A model generated the notes under the pieces. That model saw only the letters and a list, made by a program, of their open reading frames with translations. It searched no databases and was not told the origin of the DNA. The translations under genes and the position numbers were made by a program. DNA of 64,000 nt from Minisyncoccia bacterium (lineage in GTDB: Bacteria > Patescibacteriota > Minisyncoccia > Phycocordibacterales > UBA6065): positions 16,022-80,021 of the forward strand of contig JBIIJY010000004.1 in NCBI GenBank assembly GCA_044233485.1, in the 5' to 3' direction. Shown here one piece after another: positions 12,918 to 60,025 of the stretch; positions within the stretch are counted from its first letter, which is position 1; every line of letters starts with the position of its first letter.

Positions 12918-15275
12918 ATGAGTGAACAACCACCTAGAAGCTATAGTGACGTCTACTTAGAAGTAAAAGAGCTTGTAAAGGGCTTTCCATTTGAGACTCC
13001 CAACGGTCTGTTAGCGTCTCCCGATGGAATCCCTGAGCGAGCTCAAGAAATTTTGAAAAAGATCGAAGAATTGGATCCATCGAATTCAATTAGTGAGCTA
13101 AATGCTTTGAGGGGGTGTTTGATAAAGGCTCATACTAACGGCAAGTTGGACTCTTTGAGAGATCTTGATACTCTTTTACCGCCACTTCCCGAACCTGGAA
13201 CTTCATCTGAAGTGGTAAGTGAAGTTGCTCAGGCTACCACAGGGTCAGAACAGCCAACGCCCGCTTCAGGTTCTACGTCAGAAGTTCCAGCGACTGAATC
13301 CGTTTCACCAGTACCTACTCCTGAAGCCCCTCCGGTGGTAGAGCCTCAGAATCCCACATCAGCTCCCGTCTCTCCTCCTGCGCCAGAGGCCTCAGCGCCA
13401 ACTTCTCCTGAAAAGAGTCCGGAGATAGATGAACTTAAAAGACAGATCAGTGAGCTTAAAGACGAGAACGGCAAAATTAAAGACGCGTTTAATAGGTTGA
13501 TCAAAGCGAATATTGATAATCGAGATCAAATCCTCGAGGAGTTGAGGAAAGTGCGAGAAGATGTGAAGGGAAGTGGTAGTAAAACTCCTACCACTCCAGC
13601 TCAGTCAAATGTAGCTCCAGAGGCTCGAAAGACTCCAGCAGAGTCAGCTCCTGCGGCGGAAACTAAAGAAGCGCCTAAGGCTGCACCAGAAAATGCTTCG
13701 CCAAAAGCAGAGTCAGTTAAAGAAAAACCAGATCCAAAAAAGATTTTTACGGAAAAGAATAAAGTATTAGACAATCATCAATTTGATGTCATCGTCGATA
13801 GTCTTGCTTCGGCAACTGAAAAAGGTAATGGCGAGGTTATCGCTGGACTTCGCGCTGAACTCGACGCAATTGCCGATGAGCCTGAATTCCGAGAGTGGAG
13901 ACATGCGTATGGGCACGAGTACAACCTGTCTCAACCCCCTACAGTTGAGGAGGCGAACGTCTTTGCTCGGCAGTACAAAACATATAAAGCACATCGCGAG
14001 ATTTTCTTTAAAAGTGAGGGTATCAAGAGCGAACTCGTAACTTTTGTGAACATGTCGCTTATGGATGCGTACAAGTCATATATCCCGCTCACTAAGGAGG
14101 ACGCCCAAGTGCTCGAGGGAAAGCTTGATGATTTGGTGAATCCACAGGAGCTCGATTTGAGTGGTGAGGATGGTCTGAATGAGTTCCGGCAGAAAATTGA
14201 GCAGGTGAATCGCATCGACGCGAGTATGCAAAATATCCGTATGAAGCTCATTCCTGAATTCGACAAAGCACATCGTCGTTTATTTGCTGAAGCGCGATCT
14301 CTCGGACTTGAAAAAGAGCTCAATGCCCAAGCTGGTTTTGAAGGTGTTCGCCCAGGCAGTGCAGAACGTATGATCGAGGTCCTCGATACTATGCTTGCCG
14401 ACGCGGATAGTCTTGAAGCTGAGCTCAGTGAGCATAAAACTAAAGGCATGAAAGGCACACGACAAGAAGCAATCGCTGGGTTCTTTGCAAAATACGATGG
14501 TCTCATGAATGCCTTTGGTTTTTCTGGGCCAGACTTTTTCCAAGCGATGAAATTTTACTTTCCATGGCGCAATATCAGTGTTAATGCGTTTAAAGAAAAA
14601 ATACAGGAGATTCGAAGCGTTGTTGACTCAAAAAAGAAGACCTATCGTGAAGCTGCGGACAGTTTAAAGAATGAACGGCAGCAAATAATCGAAACGCTCG
14701 GTGCCCAGGAGTTTATCGCTCGAGTGGCTCAGGAGAAGGTGATCAAAAAACTCACCAAGGCTCGTAATGCAATGTTTAGCGGCCTAGAACGTGGCGGTCT
14801 AAAACTCGAAGCCGATTCTGCACTAGCTCAAGCGGAGCTTGCACGGACATTTGAGGAGCTCGGTGATGATCCAAGTGATGTGAGTGGCTTGGGTGAGATT
14901 CTTAAGAATGCACCGGTAAGAGATGTTGACGGCAATATGACCACAGCTCGTGAAGCACGTATCAATCAGGGTACTAAAGCAATTGGCCAAATGATCGGTA
15001 CGTATCTTAGTGAAATGAGTACTACTCGAAACAAAGAATTTCAAGGCTTCATGTCACTTATTGATGGGCAGTTGAAGCGAGATAAATTCGGTGAAGAAAA
15101 AGGTGATAAGCAAAAGACAATCATCAGTGCTCTTCGGGATATCCAGTTGAAACTAGCTGCCGATAAAGCAGATGATCGTGTAGCGCGGCGCAAGCGTGAG
15201 TATGTGAAGCGAGCAATCGACACACTTGAGGCACGTATCGATCCGGCTAAAGTTAAGGGTGCTCGAACTAAATAA
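12918..15275 (+). CDS. Hypothetical 785-aa protein. It has two Pro/Glu/Thr/Ala-rich low-complexity linkers (about aa 85-175 and 215-270) flanking a predicted coiled coil, then a ~500-aa alpha-helical domain.
   Basis: It is a long ORF with coding-like codon usage. No family was recognised. Neither a signal peptide nor a TM segment is apparent. It is co-directional and tightly spaced with the next two genes. Confidence 0.6.
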   Translation: MSEQPPRSYSDVYLEVKELVKGFPFETPNGLLASPDGIPERAQEILKKIEELDPSNSISELNALRGCLIKAHTNGKLDSLRDLDTLLPPLPEPGTSSEVVSEVAQATTGSEQPTPASGSTSEVPATESVSPVPTPEAPPVVEPQNPTSAPVSPPAPEASAPTSPEKSPEIDELKRQISELKDENGKIKDAFNRLIKANIDNRDQILEELRKVREDVKGSGSKTPTTPAQSNVAPEARKTPAESAPAAETKEAPKAAPENASPKAESVKEKPDPKKIFTEKNKVLDNHQFDVIVDSLASATEKGNGEVIAGLRAELDAIADEPEFREWRHAYGHEYNLSQPPTVEEANVFARQYKTYKAHREIFFKSEGIKSELVTFVNMSLMDAYKSYIPLTKEDAQVLEGKLDDLVNPQELDLSGEDGLNEFRQKIEQVNRIDASMQNIRMKLIPEFDKAHRRLFAEARSLGLEKELNAQAGFEGVRPGSAERMIEVLDTMLADADSLEAELSEHKTKGMKGTRQEAIAGFFAKYDGLMNAFGFSGPDFFQAMKFYFPWRNISVNAFKEKIQEIRSVVDSKKKTYREAADSLKNERQQIIETLGAQEFIARVAQEKVIKKLTKARNAMFSGLERGGLKLEADSALAQAELARTFEELGDDPSDVSGLGEILKNAPVRDVDGNMTTAREARINQGTKAIGQMIGTYLSEMSTTRNKEFQGFMSLIDGQLKRDKFGEEKGDKQKTIISALRDIQLKLAADKADDRVARRKREYVKRAIDTLEARIDPAKVKGARTK

Positions 15276-15284
15276 CATACATAT

Positions 15285-15584
15285 ATGAACAAAGACTATA
15301 CAGATGTACTTGCGCTCGTCGACGATGTGCTCACGCACGGGAAGCCAAAAGAGATTGAGCATATCATTGAGGCATTCCTGGATCAGCCCGGACTCTATAA
15401 ACCATCAACGATAACCCCTCTCGATATTGTTGAGGTCAAATTGAAAATTTCTGAGCTTCTCCTGACCCTTGCAACTGATCGGCTGAACGCGGTCGCCGAT
15501 GCTCTCACTGCTCTTCGAGAAGAGGAAGCGGATCTAGATACTCGGGCAAAGATAGAAGAACTTAAAAAGCTCTTGAAGAAATAA
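15285..15584 (+). CDS. Hypothetical small acidic helical protein (99 aa)
   Basis: The ORF starts 10 nt after the upstream stop, and the ATPase gene starts 32 nt later. No family was recognised. Confidence 0.5.
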   Translation: MNKDYTDVLALVDDVLTHGKPKEIEHIIEAFLDQPGLYKPSTITPLDIVEVKLKISELLLTLATDRLNAVADALTALREEEADLDTRAKIEELKKLLKK

Positions 15585-15616
15585 GTCGACAGTTTCGCGT
15601 GATACACTACTAGTAT

Positions 15617-18346
15617 ATGAACGAAGGAGGACTTTCGCTTGAAAAAAAGTTCAAGAACCCTGAAGAGGAAATTGCTTTTTTGCGTGAACAAGTGGCCCTT
15701 CGCGAGCGGGAACTTAAAGTCTCGACCGAGACTGCTCGGAGTGAAGTCGTACGTGATGTAGTGAATTCATACGCGGCTGTTCCGAAACCTCAAGTAATTC
15801 ACGAGGAGTACACTTCAACTCCGGAACATAAAGAGTCGATCCGGCTCAAGCTCTCTCCAGAGGCTCACGATAGTGAGCTCGGGCAATATATCTTTCTCTT
15901 GCAAGAGAAGGGGGTCAAGGTGGCGATCGATGCAGTGGCTCGAGTCAAAGACATACATCTTTATGATGATTTCCATCGCTTTCTAGTTGAGTATTTGAAA
16001 GAAGGACTTAACTTAAGTGGTCTCAAAGAAAAGACGCCACTGTGGCGAGAATTGCACATGACTCTCTATGAAGTAGTCCTTCCGGAGCCTGAGACAGGGA
16101 AAGAGCGCTCGCTTGGAGAAGTACTTTCTTCGATGGAGCAATTTTATGCGGGTATGAACTCTGTCGGAGACGCAGAGGATAATAATTACTATACTTTTGA
16201 GCTTGCGGTCTCAAATCATAGTGACGAGTTCATCTTTTACTTTGGTATACCCGATGAGAAGACAGTTTTGTTTGAAAAGCAGATTCTGGCCATCTTCCCA
16301 AACGCTAAAGTCGTTACGAAGTCAGATGATTACAATATTTTTAATGAGACAGGTGTGGCGACTACTGCGACGATCGCCCTCGCGCACAATCATGCGTTGC
16401 CAATCAAGTCATACGAACAATTTAACTATGATCCGCTCAATGTTCTAACAAACGCCTTTTCAAAAATAAAACGGAGTGGTGAAGGGGCGGCGATACAATT
16501 TCTCATTCGTCCAGCTCGTCGTGACTACATTAAGACCTATAAAGAATATATTACAAAGCTCGAGGGCGGGGCTTCACTACGAGAGCTAGGGGGGAGTGAA
16601 TCGCTCGGCACCGTCTTTACCTCTGTATTGAAAGAGTTTTGGACTGGTTCGAAATCAAAAGAAACAAAGACAGACGAAGCAAAGAAAAAAGTAGATACAC
16701 AGGCGATCGACTCGATTCGTAAAAAGATGGAGTCGCCACTCCTTGAGGTAAATGCCCGCATCGTAGTATCAAGTGAAAGTGTCGAGCTCTCAAACGCAAT
16801 TCTCGATGATATTGAGAGTTCGTTTAATCAGTTTGAGCTCACCCACGGGAACAAGGTTGTCTTTAAGCGTCCTCAGAAAAGTCGACTCGAATCTTCTCTT
16901 GAGGATTTCGTCTATCGTCGGTTTGTGCCAGATGAGCGCCTCGTCCTTTCGCAAAAAGAACTTGCCACCCTCATTCATGTCCCAGCCACCGGAAAGCTCG
17001 CTTCTTCACAGGTAAAGCTGGTTCGTTCGAGTGGTGCCCCAGCGCCCCTGGACTTACCACAAGAGGGGACTTTGCTTGGTACAAATACCTATCAAGGTAT
17101 TGAGACAAATGTTTACCTAACCAAAGAAGATCGAGTTCGACATTTCTACTGTATTGGTCAGACAGGAACAGGTAAAACAACCCTGCTCAAGAATATGATC
17201 GTTCAGGATATTCGAGCTGGGCATGGAGTCTGTTATATCGACCCACATGGTACGGATATTCAAGATATTCTCGCGAGTATTCCACCCGAGCGAGCTGATG
17301 ATGTGATCTATTTTGACCCGGCTTACACCGAGCGCCCGATGGCGCTTAATATGCTTGAGTACGATGTGCGCTACCCAGAGCAGAAAACATTCGTCGTCAA
17401 TGAACTCCTGGGGATTTTCAATAAACTCTTCGACATGAAGACGGCAGGTGGGCCGATGTTTGAGCAGTATTTTCGAAATGCCGTCATGCTCGTCATTGAG
17501 CACCCAGAGTCGGGTTCGACGCTACTCGATGTCTCTCGAGTGTTGGCGAGTAAAGAATTCCGTAAACTCAAGCTGGATAATTGTAAAAATCCAATTGTGA
17601 CTCAGTTTTGGAGAGAAGTAGCTGAAAAAGCTGGTGGAGAAGCGAGTCTGCAGAATATTGTTCCCTACATCACTTCAAAATTTGATAACTTCCTGTCGAA
17701 CGAAATCATGCGTCCGATCATTGCTCAGGAAAAATCAGCCTTTAATTTCCGTGAGGTAATGGATGGTAAAAAAATCCTTCTCGTAAATCTTTCAAAAGGT
17801 CGACTAGGGGATCTAAACGCCAATCTCATTGGCCTTATCGTTGTTGGTAAGATTTTGATGTCCGCTCTCTCTCGTGTCGACGCCTACGGAACTGAACTCC
17901 ATGATTTTTATCTGTATATTGATGAGTTTCAAAATGTGACCACGGACTCAATCGCGGCAATTTTGTCTGAGGCGCGTAAGTATCGACTCTCGCTCAATAT
18001 CGCTCACCAGTACATTGCTCAACTTCAGGACACGATACGCGATGCTGTTTTTGGAAACGTCGGTTCGCTTGCTGCCTTTCGTATTGGTGCCGATGATGCA
18101 GAATATCTTGCAAAGCAATTCGAGCCAGTCTTTTCAGCAAAAGATTTGATCAATATTGATAATCGTAATGCGTACATCAAGATTCTCGCTCACGGTAAAC
18201 CGATCAAGCCTTTTAATATCGAGACCAAGGCGCCATCGAAGGGGCAGCAAGAGAATATCGCTACCCTAAAAGAGCTTTCGTACCTCAAGTATGGAGCAGA
18301 CCGAGCACAACTAGAAGCTCAAATACGCGCCCGCTATGAAAAATAA
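15617..18346 (+). CDS. FtsK/HerA/VirB4/VirD4-superfamily P-loop ATPase (909 aa). An N-terminal ~450-aa domain of unknown type precedes a C-terminal AAA_10/TraG-like ATPase domain.
   Basis: It has Walker A GQTGTGKTT, then an IDPHG motif about 20 aa later, then Walker B YLYIDEFQNV, then RKYRLSLNIAHQYIAQL. This motif set is shared by HerA, VirB4/TrbE and TrwB/VirD4-type coupling ATPases. No TM helix is obvious. Confidence 0.7.
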   Translation: MNEGGLSLEKKFKNPEEEIAFLREQVALRERELKVSTETARSEVVRDVVNSYAAVPKPQVIHEEYTSTPEHKESIRLKLSPEAHDSELGQYIFLLQEKGVKVAIDAVARVKDIHLYDDFHRFLVEYLKEGLNLSGLKEKTPLWRELHMTLYEVVLPEPETGKERSLGEVLSSMEQFYAGMNSVGDAEDNNYYTFELAVSNHSDEFIFYFGIPDEKTVLFEKQILAIFPNAKVVTKSDDYNIFNETGVATTATIALAHNHALPIKSYEQFNYDPLNVLTNAFSKIKRSGEGAAIQFLIRPARRDYIKTYKEYITKLEGGASLRELGGSESLGTVFTSVLKEFWTGSKSKETKTDEAKKKVDTQAIDSIRKKMESPLLEVNARIVVSSESVELSNAILDDIESSFNQFELTHGNKVVFKRPQKSRLESSLEDFVYRRFVPDERLVLSQKELATLIHVPATGKLASSQVKLVRSSGAPAPLDLPQEGTLLGTNTYQGIETNVYLTKEDRVRHFYCIGQTGTGKTTLLKNMIVQDIRAGHGVCYIDPHGTDIQDILASIPPERADDVIYFDPAYTERPMALNMLEYDVRYPEQKTFVVNELLGIFNKLFDMKTAGGPMFEQYFRNAVMLVIEHPESGSTLLDVSRVLASKEFRKLKLDNCKNPIVTQFWREVAEKAGGEASLQNIVPYITSKFDNFLSNEIMRPIIAQEKSAFNFREVMDGKKILLVNLSKGRLGDLNANLIGLIVVGKILMSALSRVDAYGTELHDFYLYIDEFQNVTTDSIAAILSEARKYRLSLNIAHQYIAQLQDTIRDAVFGNVGSLAAFRIGADDAEYLAKQFEPVFSAKDLINIDNRNAYIKILAHGKPIKPFNIETKAPSKGQQENIATLKELSYLKYGADRAQLEAQIRARYEK

Positions 18347-18929
18347 ACTCACTGAACAAACACTTGTAGTCGTAAAACCTGACGGCGTCGAACGAAACCT
18401 CGTTGGCGAAGTCATCGCTCGTTTCGAGCGTGTGGGGCTCAAGATTGTTGGAATGCGTATGTTTGTCCCTACTCAAGAGCTCGTCACGAAGCATTATCTT
18501 ACCGATCCAGAATGGAGACGAAAAGCGGGAGAAAAGGCAATCGCCAATTTCAAAGCCAAGGGACTAACACCACCAGAATCAGATCCAGAGCGCTATGGCG
18601 AAAATGTTCTCCAGAGTCTCGTGACCTATCTCACTCGTGGCCCAGTGGTCGCACTTGTGCTCGAGGGCTTTCATGCGGTCGCGATTGTGAGAAAACTCGT
18701 TGGTTCTACCGAACCGCTCTCTTCTGATGTGGGTACAATCCGTGGGGACTATATGATTGACTCTTATGAACTGTCGACACTTGAAGATCGAAGCATTCAA
18801 AATATTCTTCATGCCTCAGGCAATGTCCAGGAGGCGCAAGGGGAAATTCCGCTGTGGTTTGGAAACGATGCTCTGATCGAGTATCACAATATTCACGACT
18901 CTCATCACGAGAAACGACGAGTTAAATAA
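18336..18929 (+). CDS. ndk: Nucleoside diphosphate kinase (with internal insertion)
   Basis: VVVKPDGVERNLVGEVIARFE...GPVVALVLEG...GTIRGDY...HASGN are NDK motifs. Confidence 0.85.
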   Translation: MKNKLTEQTLVVVKPDGVERNLVGEVIARFERVGLKIVGMRMFVPTQELVTKHYLTDPEWRRKAGEKAIANFKAKGLTPPESDPERYGENVLQSLVTYLTRGPVVALVLEGFHAVAIVRKLVGSTEPLSSDVGTIRGDYMIDSYELSTLEDRSIQNILHASGNVQEAQGEIPLWFGNDALIEYHNIHDSHHEKRRVK

Positions 18930-20760
18930 GTGAACGAGGCTCGACCTCAATCTTGATATACGGGGGAAGTGAGCGAATCCGTTTAGCCAAGTCGCTCTCT
19001 GGCCACGTAGAGGCTTGTATCATAGCTGACAGACTGACTCCGTCTGGATGAGGAACAAATGCTGGATATACCAGTACCTCAGTCGGAGCAATTATTTTTT
19101 GTAATCGTTCCATGTTGGCCTGCACGAATTCTTTGTTACCGGTGATGGTGCACTTTATGAGTGTTGTATAAGGTGGTTGGCTGAATCGTTTACGTGACTC
19201 GAGTTCTTTAGTGACCCACTCTTGATGTGAGTTTGAAATAAAATGAGAGAAGACATCGTATCCTTTCATGCGTGTACTGACTGTCATGGTACGGACGGCA
19301 CAGTTTTGAAGTTTTGTAATCAAGTTGTGAATACGCTCGCTGGTGTGTAGGTCGGGTAGGGAGAGAAGAATATCGTTTTCGAGCCAGTATATATGATCGA
19401 CCGTGCGTGGGAGCACATGAAGCGCAAGCTCAGTGCCACAGAGGATTGAAAATTTCGTTCCCCACTGGGCAAGTGTCTCGGTGAGCGCACTTTCACGGGG
19501 CGTGTGTGTACTGCTAATCATTCCGTAAGGGAGTTTGTATTCTGTGAGAAGTTCGGCAAAGCGCTCAAGCCCTGCTCCGAGTGGGTCAAGGTTCCAGCTC
19601 TCACAGTGTGTACATCGGCGCTCGGCTGTTTCGCGAGTGCCACAGTGTCGGCAAATATAGATACGCCCCTCTGCCTTTTGATGAAGAACGAGAGGGAATC
19701 GGCAGGTTGAACATCGGACGAGCTCGTGACAGTCACGACAGGCGGTGAGTGGGTAGAGCCCTTTCTGCGCTACAAAGATGAAAATACGCTCTCCACGTGC
19801 ACTCTGTTCCTGGAGTTGTTTTTTAAATGTCTCGGAGTTGAGGTAGTCACCGTTCGTGTTATACGCATCAATGCAAAGTCGTCGTGCATCGTCTCTTTGG
19901 CGAAAGGTCAGAGGCTGCGCCTCGACTTCACTGTGCTCGAGTCGTCGTGCATGTCTCTCGATGCTTAAAAAATCTGCACCAAAGTAGAGAGGTGAATTGA
20001 AAGTCTGCGCCACGAACTGCATCAGTCGACGAACATCAAAGTAGGGTGATTTGAGATGGATATAGTTGCGATTACTTTCATCTTCGACGATGAAGCATCG
20101 TCCATGATGGAGCCCGACCAAGAGTCGACTAGGCGTGAGGACGGTCACAGTACCAGAAAGTTTTGTCTGTGCTTCTTTGTATTTTTCTAATTGCTTTTCA
20201 GTTGTTGCGGGGGTAATGCAGAATACTTTCTCTTCAATGCCTTTACGAATATCTTCAAAAATCTGTTCCGCATAGTGACTATTCGGGCAGATAACTAGAG
20301 TGTGAATATGTTTTGAGAGCATCTCCCGGGTGAGAGTGCGGTAAAAGCTAATTCGGTCTTCGTATGGTTTTTGTATATCAAGAACTTCGTAGTGCAGGCC
20401 GTTCGACTCTGATTCACTCGAAGGCTCTTCATCGAGAATATGCTCGACGCCAAGTAGTCGGAGGATCTGTCCTGATGAGCCGAGGTAGTAGTCTGCTGTT
20501 TGCGCCACCGCACTCAGTGCTCGAGAGGCGAGGGTACCAAGCGGAGCTGTTGAGACAACTTTCCGGACGGCAAAATCCTGGGTCTTGAGTTCTTGTTTGA
20601 GGGATCGGGCATCGACCACCTCGAGCACGACAGCCTTGATTGTCTTTTTGCGTAGCGGCACCTCAACGATATCCCCACAGGCAAAAAGAGTGCCTGAAAA
20701 ATAGCTCAGTTGCGCCAGTTCTCGGCTTTTTGAGAGTGGAAGTACGTGCACGAGGTACAT
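18922..20760 (-). CDS. priA: Primosomal protein N' (PriA)-like protein with a degenerate helicase core
   Basis: A PriA-type N-terminal 3'-DNA-binding region (VEVPLRKK..KAVVLEV; YYLGSSGQILRLL) is present. The C-terminal Cys-rich zinc-binding insert (CRDCHELVRCSTC..CRHCG..CTHC) is retained. The Walker A position reads QKPYEDRI instead of GxTGSGKT. The DEEH box is VEDESNRNY. Confidence 0.7.
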   Translation of the reverse strand: MYLVHVLPLSKSRELAQLSYFSGTLFACGDIVEVPLRKKTIKAVVLEVVDARSLKQELKTQDFAVRKVVSTAPLGTLASRALSAVAQTADYYLGSSGQILRLLGVEHILDEEPSSESESNGLHYEVLDIQKPYEDRISFYRTLTREMLSKHIHTLVICPNSHYAEQIFEDIRKGIEEKVFCITPATTEKQLEKYKEAQTKLSGTVTVLTPSRLLVGLHHGRCFIVEDESNRNYIHLKSPYFDVRRLMQFVAQTFNSPLYFGADFLSIERHARRLEHSEVEAQPLTFRQRDDARRLCIDAYNTNGDYLNSETFKKQLQEQSARGERIFIFVAQKGLYPLTACRDCHELVRCSTCRFPLVLHQKAEGRIYICRHCGTRETAERRCTHCESWNLDPLGAGLERFAELLTEYKLPYGMISSTHTPRESALTETLAQWGTKFSILCGTELALHVLPRTVDHIYWLENDILLSLPDLHTSERIHNLITKLQNCAVRTMTVSTRMKGYDVFSHFISNSHQEWVTKELESRKRFSQPPYTTLIKCTITGNKEFVQANMERLQKIIAPTEVLVYPAFVPHPDGVSLSAMIQASTWPESDLAKRIRSLPPYIKIEVEPRSLI

Positions 20761-20871
20761 ACTCCTATTGTATGACAGTCTCTATCGGCTTGTCAGTTGC
20801 GCGAGTCCGTATTTATCGGTCAGTATTCACAGAAGCAATTTAAGCGATTCCTACACTGGTATTATGGGGGT

Positions 20872-22077
20872 ATGAAAGAACGTAGCATGGAAGATCTTCC
20901 TGCTTTCGTCAAAGGTGTGGTCACAACGGCACAGCTTGTTGATTCTCTTATTGTTGATGCATTCGGGAAACATTCTTCGGATATTCACATTGACCCGCAT
21001 AAAGAAGGGTTGCTTGTTCGCTATCGCATCGATGGGTTACTTGAGAAAGCTTTCCTACTCACGCGTACTCGTCAGGACGAAGTGATTTCCCGTATCAAAC
21101 TTCTCTCAGGAGTGCGTATCGACGAGCATTTTCGTCCGCAAGATGGCCGGTTTACTTTTTCTTCTGAAGGAGTGATGCTTGATATTCGGGCAACGTTTGG
21201 AAAATCACTTAATGGAGAGTACATAGTACTTAGATTACTTGGCAAAAAACTGCATGGAGATTCTCTTTGTGTGCTCGGCTTTTCTCAAAAACAAATTGAA
21301 CTCATCAATCGACAGCTCGCGCGTCTCTCGGGCCTCATCGTAGTGGCTGGTCCTACAGGATCTGGAAAAACTACGACACTCTACACACTCCTTACGCAAT
21401 TAGTCGATTCGACTCGCTCAATGATCTCCATCGAAGATCCGATAGAGTATGAGTTGGCTGGTGTCAGGCAAATACAAGTACAGAATTCACTTGGTCTAGA
21501 TTTCGCTTCAAATCTTCGTTCAGTATTACGCCAAGATCCAGATGTGATCATGGTGGGGGAAATACGGGATGAGGAGACTGCGCGTATTGCAGTGCATGCC
21601 GGTCTCACTGGGCACTTGGTACTGACAACGCTTCACGCTGAATCCGCCGGGGCAATCATTCCTCGGCTTTTTGATATGGGTGTCCCTCCGTATATACTCG
21701 CCTCCACACTGCGTCTAGCTCTCTCACAGAGGCTTGTACGAAAGCATTGCTCAGGGTGCCGCTACGAGGTGGGTGTGTCGAGTGAATATCACGAGCTTAT
21801 GGAAAAGCTAGGGCTTGCAAAACGCGACTTCTATCACAAAACCAAGGGGTGTGATCTGTGTCGTGGAACGGGTATTGCTGGACGAATGGTTATCTCTGAG
21901 CTGATACCAATAACCGAGGTCGAGCAACATATGATTACGGAGCGTCGCTCACAGAGGGATTTTACTAATCAGATTGTGCGAACGACGGGAACTTCTTTTA
22001 TCAATGATGGAATTGAAAAGGTTCATGCTGGAGATGTTGATTTTGATGAGTGCATTCGAGTGATTTATGAAACATAA
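20872..22077 (+). CDS. pilB: Type IV pilus / type II secretion assembly ATPase (PilB/GspE family, short form)
   Basis: It has Walker A GPTGSGKTTT, the Asp box, Walker B VIMVGEIRD, a His box, and a C-terminal tetracysteine motif (CSGCRYE..CDLCRGTG). The start at 20872 is chosen over the TTG at 20797. Confidence 0.85.
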   Translation: MKERSMEDLPAFVKGVVTTAQLVDSLIVDAFGKHSSDIHIDPHKEGLLVRYRIDGLLEKAFLLTRTRQDEVISRIKLLSGVRIDEHFRPQDGRFTFSSEGVMLDIRATFGKSLNGEYIVLRLLGKKLHGDSLCVLGFSQKQIELINRQLARLSGLIVVAGPTGSGKTTTLYTLLTQLVDSTRSMISIEDPIEYELAGVRQIQVQNSLGLDFASNLRSVLRQDPDVIMVGEIRDEETARIAVHAGLTGHLVLTTLHAESAGAIIPRLFDMGVPPYILASTLRLALSQRLVRKHCSGCRYEVGVSSEYHELMEKLGLAKRDFYHKTKGCDLCRGTGIAGRMVISELIPITEVEQHMITERRSQRDFTNQIVRTTGTSFINDGIEKVHAGDVDFDECIRVIYET

Positions 22078-23098
22078 AATAAGTACACAACAGAGTACTG
22101 TCTTCCTGGAAAACTTTGTTCAAGCCTACACCCACGGATATACAATTCCACAAGTCCTTCGTCTGGTGGCTAAAGGATCCCGTGCTCAAGCTGATTTGGC
22201 TGAGGCGGTGAGTCGTCAGGTGGAGTCGGGCGGTTCTCTTACTCGGGCGCTTGCAAATGTCGGTGTGGTTCATGCTCGTGAACTACCACTCGTAACTCTC
22301 GGTGAGCAATCGGGCGAGTATATGCCAGTGCTGACCTATATTATTGAATCGCGAAAGAAGCGTAGGAGTTTTCTTGGAGAGCTTGGTGTGCTCTTGCTGT
22401 ATCCAAGTATTGTAGGTGTTCTTATGAGTGGGGTATGTATTTTTATAATGACGGCAATTATACCGTCTCTCGTGCGCGTGTTTTCTGGTATGAATGTCGT
22501 CTTGCCACTACACACTCGACTTCTGATTTGGTTTTCTGAACATGTATGGATAGTTTTCTCGGTGGGTGTGCTAAGTGTCCTCGTGGTCACTGGCACCTTG
22601 TATATTTACTTCAGGTCGCACTCTTCTTGCAGGATGATTGAGTATATATTTCGCATACCAATTATCGGTGGGCTGGTCCAGAATATGTATGCTCAAGTGA
22701 TTATTCGAGCGTGTATGACAGCTCTCGGACTACCGATCTCGCTTACCTCGAGCCTTGAACGGCTCAAAGTCGGAGTAGATTCCTATTCAGCTATACAGTT
22801 CAGTTCTATTCAGTCTTCGCTTGAGCGTGGGACGAGACTCTCGGAGTCTCTGCAGTCACTCTCTTGTATCAAACCGGCGTATGCTCTACAGATATGTTTT
22901 GGAGAAGAGACTGGTCGACTGCGTTCAGTTCTTGATATTGTGCAAAAGACAATCGAACAAGAGAATGCTCGATACATCAAGCTCTTTACTAAACTCTGCG
23001 AGCCGCTACTGATGATCGCACTGGGTGCCGGAGTTATTTTTATTGCTTCAGCGGTACTCACTCCGCTCTATGAAATCACTCGACATGTCAAAAGATAA
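22067..23098 (+). CDS. pilC: Type IV pilus inner-membrane platform protein (PilC/GspF family)
   Basis: It shows T2SS-F domain features and three TM segments. It overlaps the pilB stop by 11 nt, suggesting translational coupling. Confidence 0.75.
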   Translation: MKHKISTQQSTVFLENFVQAYTHGYTIPQVLRLVAKGSRAQADLAEAVSRQVESGGSLTRALANVGVVHARELPLVTLGEQSGEYMPVLTYIIESRKKRRSFLGELGVLLLYPSIVGVLMSGVCIFIMTAIIPSLVRVFSGMNVVLPLHTRLLIWFSEHVWIVFSVGVLSVLVVTGTLYIYFRSHSSCRMIEYIFRIPIIGGLVQNMYAQVIIRACMTALGLPISLTSSLERLKVGVDSYSAIQFSSIQSSLERGTRLSESLQSLSCIKPAYALQICFGEETGRLRSVLDIVQKTIEQENARYIKLFTKLCEPLLMIALGAGVIFIASAVLTPLYEITRHVKR

Positions 23099-23453
23099 AC
23101 TTGCCGGATTTACCTTGGTCGAGGTGGTACTGACCGTAGTGCTCGTGAGTGGAGTAATGATGATGGTTGCTCTGTATGCGCGCAACTTGTCCAGACTCCT
23201 TTTTACAAATGAGATAGAGAGCTTCATTACGCTCCTTGAGAGTAAGCGATTAGAAGCACAGGTATATCCTGTGCAACTCGTGTGTTCTAATCGAACGGTC
23301 ATGTCTGAGGTGCAGTTAGTTTTTACTTTTGCACACCATGACTGTGTCGGCGGGACGACCTTTCCGAAAAATTCAACTTCAACATTTAGACTGAGCGGTC
23401 AGACCGAGCAGGTAATACTTATTTCTCCCCATGGGATACTTTCGATTGAATAG
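23085..23453 (+). CDS. Prepilin-type N-terminal cleavage/methylation domain protein (pseudopilin 1)
   Basis: The N-terminus MSKDKLAGFTLVEVVLTVVLV has the G|FTLVE class III signal motif. Confidence 0.75.
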   Translation: MSKDKLAGFTLVEVVLTVVLVSGVMMMVALYARNLSRLLFTNEIESFITLLESKRLEAQVYPVQLVCSNRTVMSEVQLVFTFAHHDCVGGTTFPKNSTSTFRLSGQTEQVILISPHGILSIE

Positions 23454-24696
23454 TAATGGCTTCGTCACATTAGATGCACTCTGTGCACTCACTGTGCTAC
23501 TTATCTTGTTTGTGCTTGTTGTCTCACTCGGGTCTCCAGTAGTTATGAATACAAGACTTCTCGAGAGGCTAGATCTGGATACTTCACTGCGTATGTCGTC
23601 GGCAAGTAAAGATAATTTCTATACTGTACATGACCCTCGAGCTGAGTTTAGAAGTAAGATCCTGGGGCTCTACGAGGTCGTTCATGATACTGAAGTGTTT
23701 AGAGTGCACGTGGGAGTGGACGAATTGAGTCGAAGTAAATTTTGCCAATTTACTTTTTCAAAGCCCTACACGGTTTCTTTAATTCGTGAATTTCCTTCTA
23801 GTGCTCTGCCAGTCGATGCGCTGCTTTTTGATACTGATCTGTTTATTGCTACTGACGCCACCTCAACCTTCAGCGATCCTGATTTATTTCGATTCAAGAA
23901 AGAAAGAGATAGGTATGAGCTTGTAAGTAGTATAGATACTGGTTATGGAAGTGCACGACTGGTATATCACCAAGGGTTAATTCATGTGGCACAAAATTTT
24001 GCCTCGCATCAGTTCGATATAGTTAATTATCGAAGTCCTCAGTTACCGTATATTATCTCTCAAGTGAAACTGCCTGGTTCTGTAGTCGCTCGGGGAAAAT
24101 CAATTATTCGTATTGGATCGTATGTCTATATCGGAACGACGCATAATCCAGATGGTCCAGAACTTTTTGCCTACGATCTCAGTGGTGAAGAAGTGAAGTT
24201 TATTGATTCACTGGAAATCGGTGGCAGTGTAAATGATCTTGCGAGTGCAAATCAGACTATTTTTGCTGCGACGACGTATCGTGATGGTGAATTGATGTTG
24301 ATTGCACTTGATCGGGCGACAGGTGAATTTAAAGAGGTGATGTATCGAGATATTGCTCGAGGGAGTGGGAGTGTGCGGACACTTGGGGTTTCTGCCGAAT
24401 CTATTTTGGTGGGGCTGACGGTGGGTACGAATGAGTTAAAACGAGTTGATCATGCTGGGCAAGTGCTGATTGAGCGAGACCTTGATACTACTGTTGATGA
24501 TGTGGTGACTACGAATACTGGCTGGATTGTAGCAATTAATTGGACTGGCGAAGAGATACAAGAAATCAATCCTAGTTTAGATGTCCTACATACCATCTCG
24601 CTTGGTTCTCGTATCAAAGCCTTGCGTTGCCACAAAAATGAACTGCTTGTGATTAGTAATAATTCACCGGAGATTCGTCTCTATTCAAACCCATGA
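23431..24696 (+). CDS. Large prepilin-like protein (421 aa), putative minor pilin / tip-associated protein
   Basis: The N-terminus ...NSNGFVTLDALCALTVLLILFVLVV is prepilin-like, with Asp at +5. The rest of the protein looks beta-rich. Confidence 0.55.
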   Translation: MGYFRLNSNGFVTLDALCALTVLLILFVLVVSLGSPVVMNTRLLERLDLDTSLRMSSASKDNFYTVHDPRAEFRSKILGLYEVVHDTEVFRVHVGVDELSRSKFCQFTFSKPYTVSLIREFPSSALPVDALLFDTDLFIATDATSTFSDPDLFRFKKERDRYELVSSIDTGYGSARLVYHQGLIHVAQNFASHQFDIVNYRSPQLPYIISQVKLPGSVVARGKSIIRIGSYVYIGTTHNPDGPELFAYDLSGEEVKFIDSLEIGGSVNDLASANQTIFAATTYRDGELMLIALDRATGEFKEVMYRDIARGSGSVRTLGVSAESILVGLTVGTNELKRVDHAGQVLIERDLDTTVDDVVTTNTGWIVAINWTGEEIQEINPSLDVLHTISLGSRIKALRCHKNELLVISNNSPEIRLYSNP

Positions 24697-25079
24697 AAGG
24701 CTTCTCACTTGTTGAAACAATGCTCTATATTGTCTTCACGACTACGATCATCATGACTCTCGGTCAGGTGATAATGCTTGCTATTTATAAAACCGACTAT
24801 CCACAATTAGTGTATGCACTGACGACTCTGCGTGAGTACTCGAAGTCTGTCGAATACTCTGACTTCTCGGTCAGTACGAGCTCACTTTCTGTGAGTACGT
24901 CCACTGGAGTAGTTTTGTTCACCTGCGACGCTTATGGCCTACGTATTCGAGATGTATATTCCACCTCAGTACTCATGTCGTCCCCGTTTCAGTGTGAATT
25001 TGGTTCAGTTCCTGAGAGTAGGTTTGTATATATTAAATACAGCTATCAAGACACTCTCTACAAATATGCAATTAAATAG
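24693..25079 (+). CDS. Prepilin-type N-terminal domain protein (pseudopilin 3)
   Basis: MKGFSLVETMLYIVFTTTII carries the G|FSLVE motif. Confidence 0.75.
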   Translation: MKGFSLVETMLYIVFTTTIIMTLGQVIMLAIYKTDYPQLVYALTTLREYSKSVEYSDFSVSTSSLSVSTSTGVVLFTCDAYGLRIRDVYSTSVLMSSPFQCEFGSVPESRFVYIKYSYQDTLYKYAIK

Positions 25080-25425
25080 ACCAATAAAAGTAACGAGTGG
25101 TTTTGCACTCACATCGCTCGTGTTCATAGCAACAATACTCTCTGCCGCACTCGTAGTTGGGAATTTCGAGAGGCGAGTCCTTGAAATTAAGTCGGATCAA
25201 ACCCTTGAAGATATGTTCATCGCTACGCTCGATCTTCAAAACTGTCAGCAGTACCTCTATTATGAACTCCTTACCGACACGCTCAGTATTGGCGACGATC
25301 TGTCTGGGTGTAGGGTGGTCTCGCTCACGCAAGACGAACATGTGCTTTCCGTTTCGGTAGAAAAGAATGCCCGAGTGTATCGGTATGAGTTTGAAAAGAA
25401 GTATGCTTCGTGGGAAGTTCGATAG
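25066..25425 (+). CDS. Degenerate prepilin-like protein (pseudopilin 4)
   Basis: ...KVTSGFALTSLVFIATILSAALVV is hydrophobic and pilin-like, but position +5 is Ser rather than Glu. Confidence 0.5.
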   Translation: MQLNRPIKVTSGFALTSLVFIATILSAALVVGNFERRVLEIKSDQTLEDMFIATLDLQNCQQYLYYELLTDTLSIGDDLSGCRVVSLTQDEHVLSVSVEKNARVYRYEFEKKYASWEVR

Positions 25426-25495
25426 TTATTCACCGTGCATTTTTTGCATCTTTTTTAAGGAGTAGGATAGAGGTGTATCAATAAAAATTAAGATA

Positions 25496-25972
25496 ATGAA
25501 ACAAGTAGTATGCCCGCGGAGAATGTATCAAGGTTTTACGTTGGTGGAACTTGCGATCGTGATGGCCGTACTCGCCATACTCGCATCGATAGTCATTGTC
25601 GGTATTAATCCCACTCATCAGCTCAAATCTGCTCGTGATGCGCAGCGTGTCAGTCATGTTGCCGCGATCTCAGCAGCGGTAAATCAAAACATTTTACAGC
25701 ATCGAGGGGTGTATAAATGTAGTGGGGTAGAAGTGCCGCTTCCGACTTCTACGACGACTATCAGTAGTGAGAGTGGTGGATTCCCGATCGGCTGTCTCGT
25801 CCCTAATTATCTCTCAGCGATTCCGATAGATCCAAATCGAGCTGGAGCTACCTATACTGCAACAACGACGTATAATACACAGTATCAGATTATTAAAGAA
25901 TCAGATGGGCGAGTGAGTGTGTGGGCGGTGCCTGAGGTGGAGGGTGCCGACCCGATACGAGTGACTCGTTAG
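25496..25972 (+). CDS. pilA: Type IV pilin (probable major pilin)
   Basis: ...YQGFTLVELAIVMAVLAILASIVIVGI is a canonical class III signal peptide with a hydrophobic alpha1 helix. The mature start could be reached from either the M at 25496 or the M at 25523. Confidence 0.8.
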   Translation: MKQVVCPRRMYQGFTLVELAIVMAVLAILASIVIVGINPTHQLKSARDAQRVSHVAAISAAVNQNILQHRGVYKCSGVEVPLPTSTTTISSESGGFPIGCLVPNYLSAIPIDPNRAGATYTATTTYNTQYQIIKESDGRVSVWAVPEVEGADPIRVTR

Positions 25973-39921: not shown

Positions 39922-40133
39922 TTAAAGGGATCAAACGAGAGCTTTGAAAGCGAAATCCCGGCACCACAAACTTCGTATCAACTGTTTATGGGAGACCGTT
40001 AGACTCGCGTGAGTAACGCGAGAGACTATAAACTCAATTGTATAAATTGAGAGCAAGGTAATGCACGTGTTTGTCACACGTGCATACAATAATGTATTTT
40101 CTTGATTGTGGTATGTAAAATTCCTAATAAGAA

Positions 40134-43085
<2,952 letters not shown>

Positions 43086-43199
43086 TCTTATTAGGAACTT
43101 TGCATATTACTTCCTAATCAAGAAATACATTTTGTCATTGACAAATGTGCCTATGCTTCAATATATGCTTCGTTGATACACAAAGTGTCAAACACTTTG

Positions 43200-43308
43200 T
43201 TCTGGTGGCTCGACGCGGTGGATACACCTCTCCCCATTCCGAACAGAGAAGTTAAGCGCCGTAGTGCCGATGATAGTCCTTCGGGGCGAAAGTAGGTAGT
43301 CGCCAGTA
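43200..43308 (+). rRNA. rrf: 5S ribosomal RNA
   Basis: ccccattccgaacagagaagttaagcgccgtagtgccgatgatagt is a 5S core match. Helix I closes between ctggtggc and gtcgccag. Confidence 0.9.
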
Positions 43309-58675: not shown

Positions 58676-60025
58676 ATGACTTTCGACGAACGACGAGTGC
58701 GATATCTTTCAGAACAGCGGGAAATTCCTGGTTCTGTACTCTATGTGATGACTCGAGATATGAGATTGCACGATAACTGGGCGCTCATCTATGCCCAGAC
58801 ATGTGCACTTAAGAAAAAAGTTCCTTTGACCATATTGTATGCACTAAAGGCGGAGTTTGGCGGTGGGGCACGTCGCCAATTTGACTTTAAAGTCGGTGCG
58901 CTCGAGCACCTCGTCCGTGATGCGCGAGAGAAGGGTTTTGGGTTCGTCGTTTCGACTGAGGGTGAAGATAGTGCTGTGCTTAATTTTGTTAAAACACATG
59001 AGACTTCGTGTATTGTGAGTGACTACTCACCTCTGCGAATTCATAAAGAGTGGAAACAGAGAATTTGCGCCAAGACAGATATACCTTTTGCCGAAGTTGA
59101 TGCTCACAATATCGTGCCAGTGTGGGTTGCGAGTAGTAAGCGTGAGTACGGGGCATATACACTGAGACCAAAGCTTCATAAACTGATACCAGAATTTTGT
59201 ACAGACTTTCCTAAGCTTCGAAGTCACCTGGTGGCGCCACTTGAACTTCCGATTGTTGATTTTGAAAGTATCCGAGCAGGGGCGGTGTTCACTCGAGATG
59301 TACCACCAGTCACTTGGTGTCTGCCAGGTGAAGTGGCGGCTCAGAGTGCACTCAAAGAGTTTATTGATAATCGGCTGGCCGGCTACAGTGTTCGTCGCAA
59401 TGATCCGACTCTTGATGGTCAGTCCGGATTATCGCCGTATATTCATTATGGAATGATCGCACCTCAGCGTGTCGCCTATGAAGTGATGCACAAGTCCGGA
59501 ATTCCTCGTGACGACTCAAGCGCCTTTTTAGAAGAACTCATTGTTCGGCGAGAGCTTGCTGATAATTTTTGTGAATACACCCCTCTCTATGACTCTCCGG
59601 ATGCATTTCCACAGTGGGCTCGCACTTCGCTTGACACACATGTGTCTGATAAGCGGGACTATTTGTATTCTCGAGAGCAATTTGAACAAGCTAAGACCCA
59701 TGATGAAGCGTGGAATGCCTGTCAGCGAGAATTACTTAAGACAGGGAAAATGCATGGATACATGCGTATGTACTGGGCAAAAAAAATTCTCGAATGGACT
59801 CGAAACTACACTGAGGCGATGGAGATAGCGATCTACCTCAATGATACGTATGAACTCGATGGGAGAGATCCGAACGGATATGCAGGGATCGCCTGGTCTA
59901 TTGGAGGGGTACATGACCGTCCGTGGTTTGATCGTCCGATTTTCGGAGTGATCCGCTATATGAATGCCAGCGGTCTCGCCAAGAAATTTGATGTACAGGA
60001 ATACTGTCGTCGATGGAGTCAGTAA
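58676..60025 (+). CDS. phr: Deoxyribodipyrimidine photolyase, class II (CPD photolyase)
   Basis: The C-terminal FAD-binding region DPNGYAGIAWSIGGVHDRPW...FGVIRYMN is characteristic of class II CPD photolyases. The N-terminal alpha/beta domain is present. Confidence 0.8.
   Translation: MTFDERRVRYLSEQREIPGSVLYVMTRDMRLHDNWALIYAQTCALKKKVPLTILYALKAEFGGGARRQFDFKVGALEHLVRDAREKGFGFVVSTEGEDSAVLNFVKTHETSCIVSDYSPLRIHKEWKQRICAKTDIPFAEVDAHNIVPVWVASSKREYGAYTLRPKLHKLIPEFCTDFPKLRSHLVAPLELPIVDFESIRAGAVFTRDVPPVTWCLPGEVAAQSALKEFIDNRLAGYSVRRNDPTLDGQSGLSPYIHYGMIAPQRVAYEVMHKSGIPRDDSSAFLEELIVRRELADNFCEYTPLYDSPDAFPQWARTSLDTHVSDKRDYLYSREQFEQAKTHDEAWNACQRELLKTGKMHGYMRMYWAKKILEWTRNYTEAMEIAIYLNDTYELDGRDPNGYAGIAWSIGGVHDRPWFDRPIFGVIRYMNASGLAKKFDVQEYCRRWSQ

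Follow-up and report, generated by a model that had tools for sequence, protein, structure and literature searches.

The DNA analysed here (the window, 64,000 nucleotides spanning positions 16,022 to 80,021 of contig JBIIJY010000004.1, Minisyncoccia bacterium assembly GCA_044233485.1) carries on its minus strand a complete gene for a 612-amino-acid (aa) homologue of the replication restart helicase PriA, or primosomal protein N′, in which the motifs of the ATP site are replaced. A first-pass annotation of this DNA had called the protein a PriA that retains its zinc insert and lacks Walker A and the DExH box, and had proposed either a non-catalytic replication-restart scaffold or a decaying gene. 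Its assignment to primosomal protein N′ is borne out by NCBIfam model TIGR00595 (replication restart helicase PriA), which matches residues 141-557 with E = 2.3e-37, and the predicted fold agrees (below); Escherichia coli and Klebsiella pneumoniae PriA in the PDB also match the protein (E = 3e-16 to 1e-15). The domain order is that of PriA, namely a 3′-end-binding domain (3′BD), helicase lobe 1, lobe 2 with a two-zinc Cys-rich insert, and a C-terminal domain. The segments are as follows, with coordinates that were all checked by translation:

18922-20760, minus strand: complete priA-like gene, ATG to stop, 612 codons, stop codon at 18922-18924 (open reading frame (ORF) list)
20455-20760, minus strand: 3′BD, aa 1-102 (PF17764; beta-rich fold, predicted local distance difference test (pLDDT) ~90)
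20389-20454, minus strand: short acidic linker, aa 103-124, replacing the ~90-aa winged-helix domain of E. coli PriA
19861-20388, minus strand: helicase-like lobe 1, aa 125-300, a RecA fold in which motifs I, Ia, Ib, II and III are degenerate (alignment and fold match)
20341-20373, minus strand: Walker A replacement Q130-K-P-Y-E-D-R136-I-S-F-Y140 (alignment, family counts, model)
20062-20091, minus strand: motif II (DExH) replacement I224-V-E-D-E228-S-N-R-N-Y233 (alignment, family counts)
19258-19860, minus strand: helicase-like lobe 2, aa 301-501, with remnants of motifs IV, V and VI
within lobe 2, minus strand: motif IV remnant Q-K-G-L-Y-P
19414-19437, minus strand: motif V remnant G442-T-E-L-A-L-H-V, in lobe 2
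19291-19314, minus strand: motif VI remnant K483-L-Q-N-C-A-V-R, in lobe 2
19585-19746, minus strand: Cys-rich insert of lobe 2, aa 339-392, with four CxxC pairs (two-zinc module), D343 and S388-W389
18925-19257, minus strand: C-terminal domain, aa 502-612 (PriA alignment to residue 557, Foldseek alignment full length)

Motifs, zinc domain and predicted fold

The 3′-DNA-binding N-domain is present as the first-pass annotation stated, since the Pfam model PriA_3primeBD (PF17764) recognizes residues 27-102 with 23.1 bits against a cutoff of 22.7, and Y20 (Y18 of E. coli PriA) is invariant both in canonical PriAs and in the family of related proteins described below. The linker that follows lies opposite E. 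coli residues 110-198 as an alignment gap and is the stretch of lowest confidence in the predicted structure (block pLDDT 63-82); the winged-helix domain is absent too from short canonical PriAs such as the protein P0028. At the other end of the protein, R523, P529 and P530 of the C-terminal domain are invariant across the family. Residues W82, Y86, K370, R697 and Q701, considered as candidates for SSB-tail binding, disagreed with the E. coli numbering in the alignment, and their comparison was set aside.

Helicase motifs were aligned with E. coli PriA (from NC_000913) and two canonical PriAs. The E. coli Walker A segment GVTGSGKTEVY (motif I) aligns with Q130-KPYEDRISF-Y140 and IVDEEH (motif II) with I224-V-E-D-E-S229, and the alignment upholds both earlier observations, that QKPYEDRI stands where GxTGSGKT is expected and VEDES where DEEH is expected. 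Motif III, GSATP in E. coli, reads GADFL in the window protein; motif V, GTQMLAKG, reads GTELALHV; and motif VI, QVAGRAGR, reads KLQNCAVR, with its arginines gone. Nor have the motifs been displaced to another part of the chain: a search for GK[ST], G-x4-GK and DExH/DExD found none of them anywhere in the 612-aa protein, and no canonical GxGKT or DExH stands elsewhere in it.

The replacements recur across the family. Numbered according to E. coli PriA, the G224 position holds Q in 138 of 155 family members, the G229 position E or D in 141 of 155, and the position of the Walker lysine, K230, holds R in 152 of 155 (R136 in the window protein), and at Y234 the tyrosine is kept in 141 of 155. At the D320 position of motif II E or D is found in 153 of 155 and at E322 the glutamate in 148 of 155, and the H323 position is occupied by S, N or G, just 7 of 155 proteins retaining H. 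D replaces S356 (136/155) and E replaces Q540 (141/155), and R584 and R587 of motif VI are not conserved in the family; all 52 canonical PriAs compared have H323 and R584, and 51 of them have R587. In superfamily 2 (SF2) helicases generally, motifs Ia, Ib, IV and V are the ones that contact nucleic acid, and P253 (Ia), T303 (Ib), R427 and G429 (IV) and T539 (V) are kept in 149-153 of the 155 family members. The window protein is an exception at one of these positions, with Q332 where both the family and canonical PriAs have R427. Judged from the aligned sequences, the family shows conserved replacements, not random decay.

The zinc insert is likewise retained, as the first reading had it. All eight ligands are present as the pairs C341/C344, C350/C353, C370/C373 and C383/C386, which align with E. 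coli C436 to C479, and at each of the eight positions the cysteine is found in 149-154 of 154 family proteins. Two further residues of this domain, D343 (152/154) and W389 (151/154), are nearly invariant in the family and lie at positions that are variable in the 52 canonical PriAs. These two positions align with D438 and T482 of E. coli PriA, which belong to its PriB docking site (PMC10175261).

An AlphaFold2 model of the window protein, built with a 91-sequence family alignment, has a pLDDT of 92.4 and a predicted template modelling score (pTM) of 0.91. Its best Foldseek match is 8fak_H, E. coli PriA in a fork/PriB complex (template modelling (TM) score 0.81, E = 2.9e-38, 664 columns); PriA chains make up all of the top nine PDB matches, and non-PriA helicases reach TM scores of at most 0.39. 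Strand beta-1 of the model extends to residue 130 and helix alpha-1 begins at residue 133, which places R136 inside the helix and leaves only two residues for a phosphate-binding loop. The canonical short PriA P0028, modelled as a control, has a five-residue Gly-rich loop and then a helix that starts from the Walker lysine. According to these models, helix alpha-1 of the window protein is extended at its N terminus, and this extension, which carries E-D-R, takes the place of the Gly-rich phosphate-binding loop. The window model fits fork-bound PriA (TM score 0.81, above; the entry, 8fak, was released in 2023) better than it fits the apo crystal forms (0.68-0.70), and the canonical control model shows no preference among states (0.77, 0.75 and 0.77). 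The model hints in this way at a zinc domain in the pivoted, pore-forming position, although a global TM score cannot prove domain orientation.

The family and its genomic setting

All 1839 bases of the gene recur without a single difference in two other assemblies (L001 and L002; one a Logan SRA assembly, the other a JGI metagenome), and an orthologue with 84% identity (P0002) is found among the same neighbouring genes on an ENA contig (L003). Between the window gene and the L003 orthologue the proportion of nonsynonymous differences (pN) is 0.098 and that of synonymous differences (pS) 0.748, which gives a pN/pS of ~0.13; synonymous sites are saturated in this comparison, and the corresponding ratio of substitution rates (dN/dS) is ~0.03. 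Taken domain by domain, pN is always well below pS, even in the degenerate lobe 1, and the neighbouring ndk gene behaves similarly. The priA-like gene is under strong purifying selection.

Relatives of the protein were collected in two ways. In the first, 1.84 billion cluster representatives (50% identity) were searched with a profile built from six such proteins, and the best 150 representatives are ~570-700 aa long and match over their full length with 530-920 bits; 145 of the 150 lack both GxxxxGK[ST] and DExH, in contrast to the PriAs from the first word-based search, 51 of 53 of which carry both. A word-indexed protein search with the family profile rescored the same candidates and gave no new members. 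Against the family profile (A3) the window protein reaches 604 bits and canonical PriAs at most 319, and the window protein matches the profile from end to end in an uninterrupted reading frame. Family members are ~610-660 aa long and have no winged-helix domain. Their motif I signature is Q-x3-[ED][ED]-R-h-x2-Y (more loosely Q-x3-[ED][ED]-R-x3-[YFW]), which the window's QKPYEDRISFY fits, and their motif II pattern is I-x-[ED]-x-E-[SN]-S-x2-Y (more loosely [ED]-x-E-[SNG]-[SAN]-x2-[YWF]), which EDESNRNY fits.

The second route was a scan of one genome per Genome Taxonomy Database (GTDB) species with an 8-sequence alignment and two family-specific peptide patterns, which found at least 572 stretches that encode a family relative. 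The best 80 of these loci all lack Walker A, and among their titles are Candidatus Paceibacterota, Parcubacteria group, Zambryskibacteria, Taylorbacteria, Campbellbacteria and Patescibacteria group (Paceibacterota is now placed under phylum Minisyncoccota at NCBI). In neighbour-joining (NJ) trees the family is monophyletic in 59 of 60 bootstraps with the window protein nested inside it, as one of its most divergent members (35% identical to the consensus of the family). Current curated models miss or under-score PriA proteins of this kind, and one family member (P0004 cluster) bears the name "hypothetical protein" in its source. A 612-aa protein from a Logan contig, P0006, also groups with the family (59 of 60 bootstraps for the family plus P0006); its motif I segment is wholly deleted, and its motif II EDES and its zinc ligands are kept.

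Gene order was counted in the best 80 family loci. The family gene is followed by def in 51 loci (same strand in 51/51, median gap 41 bp) and by fmt in 56 (same strand in 56/56), and it is preceded by divergent murA, mreB, holB, frr, rseP and proS; in 50-68 of the 80 other family genomes, priA has murA-mreB-holB nearby and def and fmt after it. The canonical short PriA P0028 is also encoded in a priA-def-fmt arrangement, which is that of Bacillus subtilis as well. Because this order is common to the family and to canonical P0028, the family occupies the PriA locus. No second PriA-like ORF is present in the 64-kb window or in the 1.29 Mb of flanking DNA around 80 related family genes, and no PriB or DnaT was seen near the family genes.

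In the window itself the priA-like gene is convergent with ndk (18336-18929), and the 3′ ends of the two genes overlap by 8 bases (18922-18929), an overlap that is present too in the 84%-identical relative. On its other side a divergent pilB-like ATPase gene (20797 or 20872 to 22077) begins 36-111 bp away, and murA-mreB-holB lie at a distance of 5-8 kb with a type IV pilus cluster in between, so the synteny with other family loci is partial. Neither def nor fmt was found in the window, and no replication-restart partner genes were found there.

Several other features of the window can be recorded here. The type IV pilus cluster (20797-25972, plus strand) contains pilB-like and pilC-like genes, several ORFs with no Pfam match and a prepilin-like ORF with an N_methyl motif (25496-25972). 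The three genes that follow map (12918-18346, plus strand) encode a 785-aa and a 99-aa ORF, both with no Pfam match, and a 909-aa TraG/VirD4-like coupling-protein ATPase (PF12696, PF10412, DUF8128; Walker A GQTGTGKT); this trio is conserved in the related contig L003 and is possibly a DNA-transfer or secretion module beside the type IV pilus genes. The 23S and 5S rRNA genes at 40122-43308 (plus strand) have no adjoining 16S rRNA gene, and the rRNA operon is therefore split. A 449-aa ORF at 58676-60025 (plus strand) matches only the N-terminal DNA photolyase domain (PF00875), with no match to a FAD-binding C-terminal domain listed.

Proposed function and its alternatives

We think it likely that the window gene is the selectively kept PriA orthologue of a bacterium of the Patescibacteria (CPR; Paceibacteria-related), and that its product is a pseudohelicase without an ATP site which recognizes forks and recruits partners without ATP. 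The assignment to Patescibacteria is based on the family to which the protein belongs and on the similarity of mreB, murA and holB. The earlier idea of an ATPase-dead PriA that acts as a non-catalytic scaffold is supported as far as sequence allows, because the fold, the 3′BD, the zinc domain and the nucleic-acid-contacting residues are kept while the ATP-contacting motifs (I, the histidine of II, III and VI) are replaced. Such a protein would neither bind nor hydrolyse ATP, and it would not translocate or unwind DNA. It may recognize abandoned forks or D-loops through the 3′BD and the DNA surfaces of its lobes and C-terminal domain, and it could then serve as a structure-specific landing pad to which the replicative helicase DnaB, or its loader, is recruited. 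The likely recruitment contact would be the conserved Asp343/Ser388-Trp389 patch on the zinc domain, and this surface is one place to seek a helicase-loading partner in organisms that have no PriB and DnaT.

Several points weigh against this interpretation. Loss of ATPase activity, fork binding and partner recruitment are all inferred, and the docking partner of the Asp/Trp patch is only putative. The TIGR00595 score, 128.7 bits, is far under that model's equivalog cutoff of 230.35, the scores of the PRK05580 models are all far under their own cutoffs, and PF18074, the Pfam model of the PriA C-terminal domain, was not detected in the window protein. The window gene does not adjoin def and fmt but lies between ndk and the pilus cluster, the window covers 64 kb out of a genome that measures 681 kb or more, and the rest of the genome may hold a co-existing canonical PriA. 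The sub-cutoff NCBIfam score, the gene's position and the part of the genome covered are also what would be expected of a diverged paralogue, for example a zinc-dependent factor that binds DNA structures, in a genome with a normal ATP-dependent PriA elsewhere. We regard such a paralogue as unlikely: most family genomes have the gene in the priA-def-fmt position, as canonical P0028 does, no canonical PriA occurs in the flanks of the 80 family genes, all PriA domains are kept in order in a predicted fold that matches PriA over its whole length, and two copies of PriA would be unexpected in genomes as small as those of Patescibacteria.

It is conceivable that the two acidic residues of motif II and the near-invariant arginine in place of the Walker lysine bind some ligand in a way not yet recognised. 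An alternative rather less probable than the paralogue is that the protein is still a motor or switch dependent on nucleotide, with a non-canonical site made of Q130, E134/D135, R136, E226 and E228. The replacements are conserved in the manner of a catalytic site (R in 152 and E in 148 of 155), the same Q...[DE]-R pattern is found in PriA of Nitrospirota (below), and E. coli PriA has itself been suggested to have a second nucleotide site, weaker than the first (PMC5778457). A site of this kind would have to work with no Gly-rich anion hole in a segment that is helical in the model, and after loss of the motif VI arginine fingers and the DExH histidine; moreover, the K230R substitution alone abolishes the ATPase of E. 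coli PriA (PMC5778457, PMC4504706). That the gene is instead decaying, or that its sequence is frameshifted or misassembled, can for practical purposes be set aside. The lost catalytic motifs are what such an explanation accounts for, but neither the decay nor the frameshift or sequencing artefact raised by the first-pass annotation has held up, given a frame that runs uninterrupted from end to end against the family profile, DNA that is identical in independent assemblies, the low pN/pS and dN/dS values and a fold predicted with high confidence. Comparison with relatives, which that annotation had called for, found the same substitutions conserved throughout a large monophyletic family.

Comparison with known PriA proteins

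The pseudohelicase reading of the window protein would have consequences for PriA in general. A large bacterial radiation has, as the only PriA detectable in the DNA covered here, a protein with no ATP site that is nevertheless strongly conserved, which suggests that the core function of PriA is fork recognition and an adaptor role, not that of a motor. The family also offers a natural minimal PriA (~610-650 aa, with no winged-helix domain) for structural and biochemical work.

Outside Patescibacteria, a group of about 120 PriAs of ~774 aa (P0023 and P0228-P0346), several of which are named Nitrospira, Nitrospiraceae or Nitrospirota by NCBI, lacks Walker A and DExH in 116 of 119 proteins. Motif I of this group reads L-v-Q-A-p-W-x-D-R-L and motif II EGEED, with the same Q...[DE]-R replacement as in Patescibacteria. 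An independent origin of the two groups was read from a first tree that omitted P0006, and that reading was dropped once P0006 was included. In NJ trees with P0006, the Patescibacteria and Nitrospirota groups pair in 29 of 40 bootstraps when all columns are used and in 11 of 40 without lobe 1. Their likeness reflects either convergence or an old shared pseudohelicase lineage, and long-branch attraction and motif convergence are inseparable by NJ. A broader and more speculative proposal, which we put forward only tentatively, is that ATP-independent PriA may be a widespread mode of restart in at least three phyla (Deinococcus-Thermus, Patescibacteria and Nitrospirota), with the P-loop replaced in the latter two by a Q...[DE]-R helix cap and with the Asp/Trp patch docking DnaB or a Patescibacteria-specific partner.

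Canonical PriA (structures 4nl4, 6dcr, 6dgd and 8fak; TIGR00595) shares with the family its domain order, the two-zinc insert, the 3′BD, the C-terminal domain and, at the level of the family, the priA-def-fmt gene order. It differs in having Walker A, DExH, the motif III and motif VI residues and a winged-helix domain, all of which the family lacks, and in varying at the two zinc-domain positions where the family has a near-invariant Asp and Trp.

Laboratory mutants of E. coli PriA provide a second comparison. K230R (priA300), whose lysine-to-arginine substitution is the one fixed in the Patescibacteria family, abolishes the ATPase yet leaves cells nearly wild type and supports PriA-PriB restart, and the helicase activity is needed for the PriA-PriC route and for phage Mu (PMC5778457). 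K230R, K230A and K230D proteins are dead as ATPases, helicases and translocases and still assemble primosomes (PMC5778457), and PriA K230A has been used in DnaB-loading assays (PMC10175261). These mutants are single engineered substitutions in a motor that is otherwise intact, and they depend on PriB and DnaT, whereas in the Patescibacteria family all ATP-site motifs are remodelled.

The closest natural counterpart, compared here by description, is the PriA of Deinococcus-Thermus, likewise a PriA homologue that matches motifs I and II poorly and has an arginine where the Walker lysine would be. D. radiodurans PriA has no ATPase or unwinding activity and binds single-stranded DNA, fork DNA and DnaB, and D. 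radiodurans has no priB and dnaT (PMC4504706). A review names Deinococcus as the sole exception among PriAs (PMC5778457), and no description of an ATP-site-less PriA in Patescibacteria or Nitrospirota was found in a literature search of incomplete coverage. By description, the Patescibacteria proteins differ from that of Deinococcus in belonging to another phylum, in the replacement of the whole Gly-rich loop and not of the lysine alone, in the absence of the motif VI arginines and of the winged-helix domain from short proteins of ~610-650 aa, and in carrying invariant residues of their own. A PriA pseudohelicase is thus already known from Deinococcus-Thermus, and the Patescibacteria form is the more radical one.

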